A stretch of DNA of 64,000 nucleotides from a virus (IMGVR_UViG_3300009709_000001:64001-128000), one strand, 5' to 3'; shown: positions 60,669-64,000, counted from the stretch's first letter. The notes: generated from the sequence alone by a model not told the origin. Numbers and translations are program-made.

Positions 60669-61469
60669 TTACCAGCTGCAAGAATTGCGTTTTTGTTGAA
60701 CTACACTTCTTGTTTTTGATGGCCAAGTTTTGTCCGAATATCTAGCATTCGGTGGCATCGGGAATTGAATCTGGGTATGTTGTTGAACTTGACCTAATTC
60801 AACAATAAATTGATCAAGGCTTCCCTTAGCTGGTCGATGTTTAAATTCATACACCAAAACATCTCTTGTAATCACATCAATCAAAATCTTATAGAAACCC
60901 GATGGAATAATTACTCGATTTGGGCCAATTGTCGGATCATCATATCTGTAAATCAGACCTGCATAAACAAGGATAGGATGATTTCTGGCATTAGCTAATG
61001 CTCTGGTCTGATCTTCAAGTCTCTTCCAAATTCCACGATTAAAACCGGGAAGCTGTGGAGTCATGTTGCTCAGGATGAAGCTTTCAGTCTCAATAACTGT
61101 ATCCCAGGACATATCAGCATTATTGGCAATATGGCCAGTATCGTACCCCGAATCGTTATAGTCCCGAAGTGTTGATCTTGCATCGGGGCGCAAGCTCAAA
61201 TCAGGTGAAAAAGCGTTGGATCGTTTGACGCAGCCCGTAGTGTGCTCAGGCGTCAACATATAAGAGACCCAGACGGGAATTTTAGCTTTATTGTCGTATT
61301 CCAGTGCATAAGCCTTGCGGCAAATCTGCACGCTGTCATCTTTGCGCACTTGCGGAATACCATAAGGCATCTGCTGTTCACATTGCTGTATCGGCATTGG
61401 TGGATCCTGCGGTACAGCAAAGGCCGATATCGTTGTTACTAAGGCAAGAAGTGCGAAGATCTTTTTCAT
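60669..61469 (-). CDS. secreted DNA/RNA non-specific endonuclease (NucA/EndoG family)
   Basis: signal peptide; SGYDTGHIA, SNMTPQ..FNRGIW..LE. Confidence 0.9.
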   Translation of the reverse strand: MKKIFALLALVTTISAFAVPQDPPMPIQQCEQQMPYGIPQVRKDDSVQICRKAYALEYDNKAKIPVWVSYMLTPEHTTGCVKRSNAFSPDLSLRPDARSTLRDYNDSGYDTGHIANNADMSWDTVIETESFILSNMTPQLPGFNRGIWKRLEDQTRALANARNHPILVYAGLIYRYDDPTIGPNRVIIPSGFYKILIDVITRDVLVYEFKHRPAKGSLDQFIVELGQVQQHTQIQFPMPPNARYSDKTWPSKTRSVVQQKRNSCSW

Positions 61470-61482
61470 GTGGTCCTTAATG

Positions 61483-61512
61483 AAAAAGCCCCAATGATAA
61501 TATCACCGGGGC
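61483..61512 (-). terminator. terminator after tRNA-Gly
   Basis: GCCCCGGTGAT/ATCATTGGGGC stem plus U5. Confidence 0.7.
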
Positions 61513-61517
61513 AAAAC

Positions 61518-61591
61518 TGGAGCGGGTAACGAGAATCGAACTCGTGCATAAACTTTGGCAAAGTTTTAGGCTACCATTACATCATACCCGC
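61518..61591 (-). tRNA. tRNA-Gly(GCC)
   Basis: AAACT-TTGCCAA-AGTTT arm, TCCA end. Confidence 0.92.
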
Positions 61592-61601
61592 ATACATCTA
61601 T

Positions 61602-61862
61602 TTATCTTCTAACTAAAAAATTCCGAAAGTGTGTTTTCACACCAAAGCTTCTAGGACATGGGCTTGCATTGGCATGTCAAGTATACGATTTCTCTTCATG
61701 ACTTGGTTCGGGCTTTCAAAGCCAAAACAAACAATTACCCATTCAATCCGCAAGAATTTACCGTTCAGATCGTAGCATCCTGGACTTATCTCGCTTCGCA
61801 CTCTTTAAATAATGGCTACTTCTAGGCCTACATCCTTACAGAGTTTTTTAGTTAGAAGATAA
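61602..61862 (-). ncRNA. ncRNA mimicking the 23S rRNA L11-binding domain (H43-H44) with a 158-nt insertion
   Basis: AGGATGTAGGCCTAGAAGTAGCCATTATTTAAAGA ... GGTGTGAAAACACACT enclosed by a 22-nt inverted repeat (21/22). Confidence 0.8.
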
Positions 61863-61896
61863 GGGGACTCCGGTCCCCTTATCTATACACGACCTC

Positions 61897-63306
61897 TTAG
61901 AAGTCGTACTTCTCGACCATTACAGTCTTCAGCATAATGCTGATCGGTGTCATTTCTTCACCACCAAGAACCGACTTAACGATGCTTGGGCTGAATCCAG
62001 ACACAAGTGCTGCACCGACCTTGTTATAGGTCACCGGGCTGTTACCAGAACGGCCAGTAATGTTCCAGAACACGATCTGTGGCATCTTGTAGCCTGCGGC
62101 TGCATATTCTGCCTCGATCATTTCCATCGCACTAACCGACACACCTGCACCATAACCACGGCCGGAACCAGCGGTTACGCAAGTGTCGAATTCCATGTCC
62201 GACAAGATCATGATCTTTGTCGGCATTTCCTTCTGTGCAACCTTACCCTTCACTGCCGCACCCAAGATCAACTTGAATACAGCCTGGATGTCAGTATTCA
62301 TGCTCCAGCTCGAACGAGACATAGTATCGAAACGCTGCTTCAAAGTACCAGTTACCTTCAACAGTTCTGGCGCACCAGAGAATGTCACGAACTGATCCTT
62401 GAACACACCACCCATGCGTTCTGCGGTGTATAGACCTAGCGAAATCGCCACGTCCATTGCAGTTACCGATCCAGACACCGGAGTATCCATAGAACCGGAA
62501 ACGTCAACAACCGCAAGGATGTTTTCATCCGAACCTTCCAAGTAGTTAGGCAATGCCTTCCACTGTTCGTTCGACACAGTAACGTCACCGTTACGTAGAG
62601 AACGGATCACATCGTATGGGTACGCCACCGATGCGTTGATCTTTGCTTCGCCAGAAACCAGCTTAGCCTTATAGGTAGCATAACCCGATGGGTCGTGCTT
62701 ACCGAAAGCCTTCTGATAACGACCAGCAGCAACCGAAGGAACGTGCTGGTAGTTGATGTCATCCCATTCCTGGGCACACATCTTCTGTTCAACAGTGTTA
62801 GACAAGCTAACAACGAGTTGACGATACTGCTTAGGTGTCAACTTCAAGTAAGAACGAATCTTACCGGCTTCTGCACCCTGACGAGGCATCCACTTAGCGC
62901 ACAGACCGTCCTTGGCATTCAAAGCAGTCGCAATCATGCGCAATGCTTCGCGTTCCAATGGAGTACCGAATGCAACGAATACGTCGTCCCAACGACCAAG
63001 TGTCGGCACCTTCGCCAATACCTTCGAAGCGTTAACCGCGTCGGTACGGATCAAGTAACCAAACAGGTCACGGAAAGTCTTACGTTCGCCGGAACCACCA
63101 CGGGCGTCACGAGTCCATTGAAGGATACGGATCGCCACTTCAGAATCTTCTGCCAAAGCACCAGCAAAGACATTCTTGATGTCCTTACCGCGGCTTGCGC
63201 CAGCTAGGAAGAAGAGGTCCACGTTCTTATTCAACGAGGACACGTTGGTAACCGCGCCATTAGCGGTTGTTGCGGAGGCGTTTATAGCGGTGAAAAGGTC
63301 TGTCAT
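61897..63306 (-). CDS. DUF2828-family protein (helical TROVE-like region plus vWA domain)
   Basis: T.NGA, RDARGG.GER, GRWDD, AKWMPR, VPSVA, VDVSGSM (MIDAS), SDMEFD, VFWN, SGFS. Confidence 0.85.
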   Translation of the reverse strand: MTDLFTAINASATTANGAVTNVSSLNKNVDLFFLAGASRGKDIKNVFAGALAEDSEVAIRILQWTRDARGGSGERKTFRDLFGYLIRTDAVNASKVLAKVPTLGRWDDVFVAFGTPLEREALRMIATALNAKDGLCAKWMPRQGAEAGKIRSYLKLTPKQYRQLVVSLSNTVEQKMCAQEWDDINYQHVPSVAAGRYQKAFGKHDPSGYATYKAKLVSGEAKINASVAYPYDVIRSLRNGDVTVSNEQWKALPNYLEGSDENILAVVDVSGSMDTPVSGSVTAMDVAISLGLYTAERMGGVFKDQFVTFSGAPELLKVTGTLKQRFDTMSRSSWSMNTDIQAVFKLILGAAVKGKVAQKEMPTKIMILSDMEFDTCVTAGSGRGYGAGVSVSAMEMIEAEYAAAGYKMPQIVFWNITGRSGNSPVTYNKVGAALVSGFSPSIVKSVLGGEEMTPISIMLKTVMVEKYDF

Positions 63307-63365
63307 ATTGTATTCTCCTCAGAATTATGCTTATGTTAAATGCTGTTTTAACTCTTTAAAATTTA

Positions 63366-63394
63366 ATTTTACATAAATAGTTTTACTATGTCAA
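63366..63394 (-). promoter_or_regulatory. sigma70 promoter for DUF2828 gene, overlapping a divergent CATAAATA late motif
   Basis: TTGACA-17 nt-TAAAAT on minus; CATAAATA at 63372-63379 on plus. Confidence 0.75.
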
Positions 63395-64000
63395 CCAACT
63401 TAACACAGAAACCACCTAAATGTAAGAATCCCGAGTGCCAAAATGAAACATATTGGCGTAAAGGGTCCAAATCAATGCAATGGTCTACTTATTGCATGAA
63501 ATCATGCTATCATTCTCATAAGAGCACTCTTATGTCTAAACCACCAAGGTTAAATGGTCCAAAATGTAAATTACCTTCTTGTGAAAATCTTGTAAATTGG
63601 TCAAGAAGTAAAGGGGTCGGGTGGAAAAGCTATTGCTCCGGTAATTGCTCATCAAAATACAAATCGGCTATTCTACTAGATGAAAAATTATCTCTTCCTA
63701 TAAAAATATGTAATAATCCATACTGTAATAATATCGTTTCGATAAGAAACAAATATTCACATGTATGGCTAGATCAATGCTCTCTTGAATGTAAAAGAAT
63801 AGTCGATCAAATTAAAATCAAATCTACAAACATACAGAGGTATGGCGTAGAAAATGTTATGCAATGCGATTCTATATTTGCAAGTAATATCAAAAGCAAT
63901 AAACGATTCAAAGATTATATTTTACCATCTGGTAAAATAGTTCGCATACAGGGAAATGAAAACCTTGCATTGGACCAACTTCTTCAGACTTATCAAGAAG
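63388..64000 (+). CDS. putative homing endonuclease, partial (paralog of 32249-33163)
   Basis: three C..C/C...C repeats, TNIQRYGVEN, KDYILPSGKIVRIQGNE; runs off the window. Confidence 0.75.
   Translation, partial: MSTNLTQKPPKCKNPECQNETYWRKGSKSMQWSTYCMKSCYHSHKSTLMSKPPRLNGPKCKLPSCENLVNWSRSKGVGWKSYCSGNCSSKYKSAILLDEKLSLPIKICNNPYCNNIVSIRNKYSHVWLDQCSLECKRIVDQIKIKSTNIQRYGVENVMQCDSIFASNIKSNKRFKDYILPSGKIVRIQGNENLALDQLLQTYQE

Follow-up and report, generated by a model that had tools for sequence, protein, structure and literature searches.

We conclude that a large bacteriophage encodes a free-standing RNA replica of the GTPase-associated center (GAC) of the bacterial ribosome. The replica is the product of a noncoding RNA gene of about 260 nt, located on the minus strand at positions 61602 to 61862 of the window (the 64,000-nt stretch of DNA analyzed here), between a gene for a DUF2828 protein and a gene for tRNA-Gly. 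The phage genome is complete, with 385,394 bp and terminal repeats. The two ends of the RNA jointly rebuild the domain of 23S rRNA that binds uL11 and meets the translational GTPases, and the whole forms a self-closed copy of that domain, with an H42-like closing helix, H43, H44, the 1072/(1092-1099) base triple, and the 1082-1086 pair. The element belongs to a large family of phage RNAs, and the product of the gene must fold like the GAC.

The likeness to rRNA is direct at both ends of the element. Read on the minus strand, the segment from 61836 to 61802 differs from positions 1054 to 1088 of the 23S rRNA gene rrlH of Escherichia coli K-12 at 4 of 35 positions (31 are identical), and blastn of the whole element against rrlH returns this stretch with an E value of 8e-9. 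Beyond a 158-nt insert that separates the H43-like and H44-like segments, the stretch from 61643 to 61628 aligns with rrlH 1090 to 1105 with no gaps and with 10 of 16 positions identical. A sequence-only reading of this DNA had described both alignments, the insert, and its several hairpins, and the alignments hold when checked against the actual rrlH. The 22-nt inverted repeat with one mismatch described in that reading is confirmed as well and forms the outer end of a longer helix, in which an inverted-repeat search finds arms of 33 nt each that are 85% complementary. The coordinates of these parts and of the neighboring features are given in Table 1.

Table 1. Parts of the phage RNA gene and features next to it, in window coordinates
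Feature	Position	Strand	Description
Sigma-70-like promoter	63366-63394	-	Consensus match only (11 of 12 positions); ahead of the DUF2828 gene
DUF2828 + DUF7788 protein gene	61897-63306	-	469 aa; Ro60-like; Pfam E values 9e-51 and 2e-26
12-bp hairpin	61857-61884	-	3' of the DUF2828 stop codon; inverted repeat, 100% complementary
5' arm of closing helix	61830-61862	-	H42-like stalk; inner end is A1054-G1055-G1056; inverted repeat
H43 mimic and junction	61802-61836	-	Equivalent to 23S 1054-1088; stem 1057-1064/1074-1081
Variable arm	61644-61801	-	158-nt insert at G1089/G1090, with a basal helix and several hairpins
Subclade-conserved hairpin in insert	61702-61732	-	GUUUGUUU-stem-loop-GAACCAAG
H44-like segment	61628-61643	-	Equivalent to 23S 1090-1105; G1091-C1100, U1092-A1099, G1093.A1098, loop UGAA
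3' arm of closing helix	61602-61634	-	Inverted repeat; outer end overlaps the GATAAATA motif
tRNA-Gly(GCC)	61518-61591	-	10 nt downstream of the element, same strand; found by ARAGORN and Rfam
Intrinsic-terminator-like hairpin and U tract	61488-61512	-	After tRNA-Gly; likely end of the transcription unit

The H43 mimic carries the 1067 loop as CUAGAAGUA, followed by UUUAAAGA, and the H44-like stem is followed by C1102-A1103-C1104-U1105. The key bases of the window copy are A1061 (61829), A1067, U1072 (61818), U1092 (61641), and A1099 (61634); its triple is in the U/(U-A) state, one of the two main states in the family. The variable arm changes the three-way junction of the GAC into a four-way junction. 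The insert that forms this arm has no significant match to E. coli 23S rRNA (best E value, 0.3; only chance-level matches of 8 to 14 nt), and the best of these matches is not kept in the related loci L015 and L019. The hairpin within the insert occurs once in the window, with 0 occurrences expected by chance. It is retained in L015, L019, and L022, and its pairing by RNAalifold includes compensatory changes.

Metatranscriptomic contigs of genuine rRNA align with positions 61797 to 61836 with 3 to 4 mismatches and then continue into true H44. We rejected the identification of the element as a genuine 23S rRNA gene or fragment, as it is enclosed in the window by a self-complementary helix, with a protein gene and a tRNA beyond, it contains the 158-nt insert, and its match to the Rfam model of bacterial LSU rRNA is local and weak (12.7 bits; E value, 0.13; gathering score, 50).

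With the complete element as the query, blastn gave no match among 50,697 phage records, and relatives were found only by the short core. We traced the family through viral contigs that carry a relative of the DUF2828 gene and then with degenerate patterns for the H43 core. Among the loci with a DUF2828 relative, the RNA is present in three related phages and missing from about fifteen others. The degenerate pattern identified 39 viral contigs, and a looser version identified at least 119, with at least 115 distinct cores. A 28-nt core pattern (a GGC-N9-GCC stem-loop plus a UUUAARGAG junction) matches the window exactly; the only other place in the 385-kb genome has 3 mismatches and no H43 features. 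A pattern scan also located the RNA in unannotated gaps of about a dozen cultured phages. These carriers include Pseudomonas phage pf16, where the RNA sits between tRNA-Asn and tRNA-Pro, Cronobacter phage GAP32, Pectobacterium phage CBB, Yersinia phage fHe-Yen9-04, Xanthomonas phages XaC1 and XacN1, and Ralstonia phage RSP15. In prokaryote assemblies, a 17-nt 3' motif gave 106 matches, which is about the number expected by chance, and we counted only the 28 that also have the 5' half; these include isolates such as Flintibacter muris DSM 110149.

The sequence-only reading knew of no named family for this RNA, and we find none. The Rfam scan of the window at gathering scores reports tRNAs only, and the E-value mode adds only a sub-threshold LSU match on H43, both in the window and in a long member. 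Such a family is absent from Rfam 15 and is not described in the searchable full-text literature.

To compare members, the 3' half of the RNA was placed by its complementarity to the 5' flank in 89 distinct copies. The inserts of the family range from 37 to about 400 nt, and their position, between 1089 and 1090, is constant; in three copies the insert is missing. These insert-less members, plain GAC look-alikes of roughly 58 to 68 nt (L084:1017-1084, L086:4878-4945, and L095:295-362), have an H44 identical to that of rRNA (GCGUAAUAGC), C at 1067, and U1072 with C1092-G1099, and are exceptions to the triple covariation described below. About 8 of the 89 members, all of them long, carry the sarcin-ricin-loop motif AGUACGAGAGGA in the insert. 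This look-alike of the sarcin-ricin loop (H95) lies in a hairpin in L081:6880-7304 and occurs also in L083, L085, L107, L129, L144, and L172. There is no sarcin-ricin-loop motif in the insert of the window copy or elsewhere in this genome. GAACCAAG of the window hairpin resembles GGAAUUAAG, the 3' strand of the arm in sarcin-ricin-bearing members, which suggests that the window arm corresponds to theirs but lacks the bulged-G/GAGA tip. A second recurrent type of insert has a conserved CACCCCG-N5-GGUAAGG module directly before the H44-like segment (L227:1600-1660 in phage pf16, and also L126, L130, L133, L139, L160, L196, L213, and L218).

Evidence that the fold is under selection comes from covariation. 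The check that had been proposed at the outset, a covariance model built from phage homologs, was done with 14 short members, none of them close to the window and the window copy left out. The model recovers the window element at 66.2 bits (E value, 1.7e-14), spanning model positions 1 to 148 of 148, as the sole significant match in the 64 kb, and it matches 97 places in the gathered loci. Over 92 distinct matches, 90.1% of cells pair, compared to 66.1% in shuffles. The covariation score is 0.514, compared to 0.154 in shuffles (0 of 500 as high) and 0.06 to 0.13 in slid controls. We place more weight on the anchored counts over the 89 copies, because the alignment of the 92 matches was fitted to the model.

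The most telling of these counts concern the base triple. The 89 members have C/(C-G) in 54 cases, U/(U-A) in 28, U/(U.G) in 6, and C/(U-A) in 1; for the pair 1092-1099 alone, the counts are 54 CG, 29 UA, and 6 UG. Five groups of members with homologous inserts each hold both states of the triple, so at least five independent concerted switches have taken place. According to Conn, Gutell, and Draper, writing in 1998, the same covariation reportedly defined this triple in natural rRNAs. The helices covary as well. The pair 1082-1086 is UA in 61 copies and CG in 25, and the pair 1058-1080 is UA in 40, GC in 29, AU in 13, and CG in 4. The closing helix (1046-1055 with 1104-1113) is 53 to 100% canonical, with all four pair types, and is fully compensatory, and the basal helix of the variable arm covaries too (pairs 54-56 with 301-303 of the family alignment). 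Without being imposed by the search, A1057, G1059, U1060, U1094, and the UUU that precedes G1090 show little or no variation. U1094 and A1095 are for the most part retained across the family; among the other loop bases, 1067 is A in 60 members and G in 27, 1096 is A in 74 and G in 15, and 1097 is free.

The central claim of the sequence-only reading, a stand-alone phage mimic of the GAC in which the tertiary fold is selected, is thus borne out by the triple and helix covariation across the 89 members. It had been argued there from the concerted change of 1072, 1092, and 1099 in the window copy, and this argument holds for the whole family. A second argument, that A1061 speaks for the fold, had to be given up: the base is uninformative, as the family has A in 36 members, U in 34, and G in 17, and the position is variable in natural rRNAs (PMC6239185).

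The window copy itself departs from the consensus at G1059.U1079 (found in 1 of the 89 members), C1065, and G1095, and it has the lowest score among the full-length matches of the covariance model. Its UGAA loop in H44 is a minority form in the family, with G at the conserved A1095 position, and this loop with G1095 is also found in the close relatives L015 and L019. For the isolated H44 segment of the window, thermodynamics favor a hairpin of 4 to 6 bp (GUGU/ACAC) with a GNRA-like GAAA loop. The register of H44 in the family is that of rRNA, because C-type members cannot make this alternative hairpin. The family covariance model places the window segment in the rRNA register, and the 3' segment of the window, which reads UUUGGUGUGAAAACACAC, fits the family pattern UUUGG-Y-GU-NNN-A-R-CACAC in that register. 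For the subclade of the window, we infer the rRNA register from the family, not from the window copy.

The genomic context of the RNA is that of a tRNA gene. All 53 tRNA genes at 112 to 174 kb of the genome, including a tRNA(CUA), and a tmRNA are on the minus strand, and the element lies inside this island; the 54th tRNA of the genome, a tRNA-Met, is apart at 316 kb. The tRNA(CUA), which is of the amber-suppressor type, and the tmRNA-like gene are at G000:C1:144387-144463 and 149048-149415. Across the family, a tRNA is encoded within 4 kb in 81 of 113 loci and within 300 nt in 66, in all 66 cases on the same strand. Protein clustering over the 113 loci identified no recurrent neighbor gene. 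The commonest neighbor families (DUF2828, TerD-like proteins, and homing endonucleases) each occur in at most 9 loci. DUF2828 is within 4 kb in 9 of the 113 and is directly upstream only in the subclade of the window. A suppressor tRNA is within 4 kb in 3 of the 113, so there is no local link to stop-codon recoding. The RNA gene is accessory, because it is missing from two complete close relatives of the phage.

Based on the sequence signals at either end, the putative promoter and terminator may bracket a transcription unit made up of the DUF2828 gene, the RNA, and tRNA-Gly. From the end of the DUF2828 gene it is 34 nt to the closing helix and 71 nt to the H43 core, both of which lie downstream. 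With its 3' arm, the short hairpin after the stop codon overlaps the initial 6 nt of the closing helix, and a consensus scan made no terminator call on this hairpin. Relatives of the DUF2828 protein occur in 711 phage records, and phage records of RefSeq name relatives "RNA-binding protein"; a sequence search against solved structures returned designed repeat proteins only. A 2.7-kb contig from a metatranscriptome of the same habitat is identical to 61623-63500 and gives a weak hint that the locus is transcribed, although such a contig could derive from DNA. Runs X16 and X18 contain only short pieces of the DUF2828 gene region, with 90 to 95% identity, and we give no weight to the gap that the X2 contigs leave at 61489-61622, where the tRNA and terminator lie.

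In terms of function, we consider it probable that the RNA is a trans-acting decoy of the GAC site. The RNA would be cotranscribed with its neighbors and then freed from the tRNA-array transcript, with an RNase P cut at tRNA-Gly, 10 nt downstream, setting its 3' side. It would build up during infection and, away from the ribosome, act in trans by tying up a protein for which this rRNA domain is the normal target. The first candidate for this protein is host uL11, possibly together with uL10/bL12; titration of uL11 would yield uL11-poor ribosomes, in which RelA activation would be blunted and RF1-dependent termination altered. The assignment of host uL11 as the partner is tentative and less likely than not to be right. 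The combined proposal, that a stable phage RNA with the fold described above acts as an off-ribosome decoy with host uL11 as the first candidate, has in our judgment slightly less than an even chance of being correct.

We rank a decoy of uL11 and the stalk first because the fold core that is read by the C-terminal domain of uL11 is conserved, because the loop bases in contact with factors and thiostrepton are less constrained (A or G at 1067, with 1097 free), and because none of the carriers searched, this phage and 35 others, encodes a uL11 of its own. Against it, uL11 is mostly ribosome bound, so a sponge would need a high copy number or exchange. The copy of the sarcin-ricin loop in some members argues for a factor or toxin able to recognize the two elements together, and not for uL11, and the patchy presence of the RNA among close relatives fits a counter-defense gene at least as well. 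A more far-reaching version is improbable: that large phages reprogram host translation with a free-standing replica of the factor-binding site (the GAC in all members, with the sarcin-ricin loop added in some) and that, in this phage, the RNA strips or intercepts host uL11 and thereby silences the RelA-dependent stringent response and weakens RF1, to the advantage of the phage tRNA(CUA). The amber-suppressor tRNA(CUA) is encoded 19 kb from the element in the same array, and domain 1 of RF1 docks on uL11 (PMC3677378).

Searches for further phage-encoded partners found no uL10 above the cut-off and no RelA/SpoT homolog in this phage. The N-terminal part of a 122-aa phage protein matches the C-terminal domain of bL12 (PF00542, 35 bits; factor-binding helices), and the protein is without the uL10-binding N-terminal domain (L228:1258-1626, minus strand, equivalent to G000:C1:286017-286385). 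We dropped this protein as a partner of the RNA, as its family occurs in 3 of 35 carriers compared to 3 of 15 noncarrier relatives; close relatives of the phage encode it both with and without the mimic.

Second in rank is a decoy for toxins that act on the GAC. The RNA would absorb a host toxin or defense effector (an ADP-ribosyltransferase, RNase, or glycosidase) that attacks this site, and ribosomes would stay functional. We know of no GAC-directed toxin from an anti-phage system as yet, and the very wide host range of the family demands an equally widespread toxin. The bases of the loops that could be modified are also less conserved than the fold core (1097 is free, and the window copy has G1095), and we regard this explanation as rather unlikely. 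Nevertheless, one bacterial toxin does act on precisely this site: Tre23 ADP-ribosylates H44 around 1095-1098 and blocks the GTPase activity of EF-G (PMC8661411). The RNA resides in tRNA arrays, is accessory in that two complete close relatives are without it, and in some members adds a copy of the sarcin-ricin loop, the other classic toxin target. Such a role would parallel that of phage tRNAs, which make up for tRNAs lost to anticodon nucleases by replacing or outnumbering them. RNA mimicry as a route of phage escape reportedly has a precedent in pseudo-ToxI (PMC3475682).

The combination of the GAC and the sarcin-ricin loop constitutes the factor-binding site of the ribosome, and about 8 of the 89 members hold both in one RNA. 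These members raise the possibility that the free-standing RNA, alone or with stalk proteins, binds a translational GTPase (EF-G, EF-Tu, IF2, or RF3), RelA, or a release factor, which would thereby be sequestered or misdirected. U1094 and A1095, which are largely kept, are in line with this role. However, A1067, a key factor contact, is replaced by G in 27 of the 89 members, and the window copy has G at 1095 and no sarcin-ricin-loop motif. Isolated GAC RNA also binds factors weakly without the rest of the ribosome. We consider a role as a factor platform quite improbable.

It is very improbable that the RNA is the partner or cargo of the adjacent Ro60-like DUF2828 protein, as a Y-RNA-like molecule with an rRNA domain as its body. 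In the window and in the three relatives closest to it, the RNA shares a strand with the DUF2828 gene and begins 63 to 72 nt past the stop codon of that gene, its long terminal helix recalls the architecture of Y RNAs, and the 9 of 113 loci with DUF2828 within 4 kb include distant ones. Yet 104 of the 113 loci have no DUF2828 nearby, most close DUF2828 loci are without the RNA, and the helix-plus-CAGCAA "handle" ascribed to partner RNAs of DUF2828 was not found in 61602-61862. The RNA and DUF2828 both cluster in tRNA regions, and this alone can explain their proximity.

A functionless origin, as a decayed, captured host rRNA or an assembly chimera, might be suggested by the high local identity to 23S rRNA (31 of 35) but has practically no probability, as the compensatory and triple covariation over about 90 distinct copies refutes it, the helix closes on itself, the insert is at one fixed point in every member, the copies do not track host rRNA (the pf16 copy has G-C at 1058-1080, where E. 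coli rrlH has U-A and Pseudomonas rRNA presumably the same), and the chimerism about which the sequence-only reading had cautioned is countered by finished genomes of cultured phages and by an identical 62.7-kb DNA contig that crosses the locus with even depth and no differences.

Several known systems share features with the RNA. With the GAC of 23S rRNA (E. coli 1051-1108, the 58-nt fragment that binds uL11 and thiostrepton), it shares the secondary structure and a near-identical core, the 1072/(1092-1099) triple in both its C/(C-G) and U/(U-A) forms, the 1082-1086 pair, G1071 with G1091-C1100, U1060.U1078, and G1093.A1098. It differs in that it is a stand-alone gene with a sequence-free closing helix in place of H42, an extra arm of 0 to 400 nt at 1089/1090, and G.A in place of A1090-U1101, and in that 1067 may be G.

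The rplJ leader imitates this very region of rRNA and is bound by L10(L12)4. Like the phage RNA, this L10 leader (RF00557) is an extraribosomal RNA that imitates a protein-binding site of rRNA. Ribosomal-protein leaders are, however, cis-acting elements with a loose likeness to rRNA in cellular mRNAs upstream of ribosomal protein genes, whereas the phage RNA is free-standing, lies in a tRNA array with no adjacent ribosomal protein gene, and has almost the sequence of rRNA. We rejected identity with RF00557, to which there is no match even at an E value of 10; the downstream gene is a tRNA.

The YrlA Y RNAs that accompany Ro60/Rsr (PMC4201824) are likewise small, with a long terminal helix and a body resembling an RNA of translation. 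They are encoded beside a Ro60-type gene, also in phages, and the body that they carry imitates tRNA. In contrast, the body of the phage RNA imitates an rRNA domain, and the link to a Ro60-like gene is found in only 8% of loci. We rejected identity with Y RNAs, as there is no match to any Rfam Y-RNA model and the body is rRNA-like. Phage tRNA arrays and the pseudo-ToxI of phage phiTE (PMC3475682) are further cases of phage look-alikes of host RNAs, which sustain translation or absorb a toxin. The genomic neighborhood of the RNA is the same as that of phage tRNAs, and the RNA that it imitates, in contrast to these cases, is a part of the ribosome. GOLLD and ROOL, which are large and ornate, are also structured noncoding RNAs of phages that often adjoin tRNA genes. 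The RNA studied here is much smaller, has a core that is recognizably an rRNA domain, and matches neither Rfam model, and we rejected identity with either.

Imitation of tRNAs by viruses is known, as are viral genes for tRNAs, ribosomal proteins, and translation factors. In the searchable literature, by comparison, there is no description of a functional rRNA domain copied as a stand-alone viral RNA. In this family, the tertiary fold of the uL11/thiostrepton domain is preserved across phages of Proteobacteria, Firmicutes, and Bacteroidetes, and about 100 natural sequence variants are now available for one of the best-studied RNA tertiary folds. Such preservation, with a sarcin-ricin loop added in some members, would imply widespread and unrecognized interference with, or protection of, the ribosomal GTPase center during infection, and it may reveal a new principle of counter-defense (rRNA decoys) or a new control of the stringent response or of termination. 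The cultured carriers pf16, GAP32, CBB, and XacN1 permit direct functional tests.

Three further features of the locus are of interest. The motif GATAAATA (window 61603-61611; loci L003-L021) recurs about 6 to 10 nt before the 5' ends of tRNAs in this phage group and is close to the T4 late-promoter sequence TATAAATA. In a close relative, a GC-rich, structured-looking element of about 100 nt, which starts with GCUCCGGGUUUGUUUAUCCCGAGGAG, replaces the mimic (L018:3960-4060) and sits between the DUF2828 gene and tRNA-Gly. In the window, the terminator after tRNA-Gly is directly followed on the minus strand by an Endonuclease_NS gene (60669-61469; DNA/RNA nonspecific endonuclease; E value, 6e-37), the predicted protein of which has an N-terminal signal-like segment.
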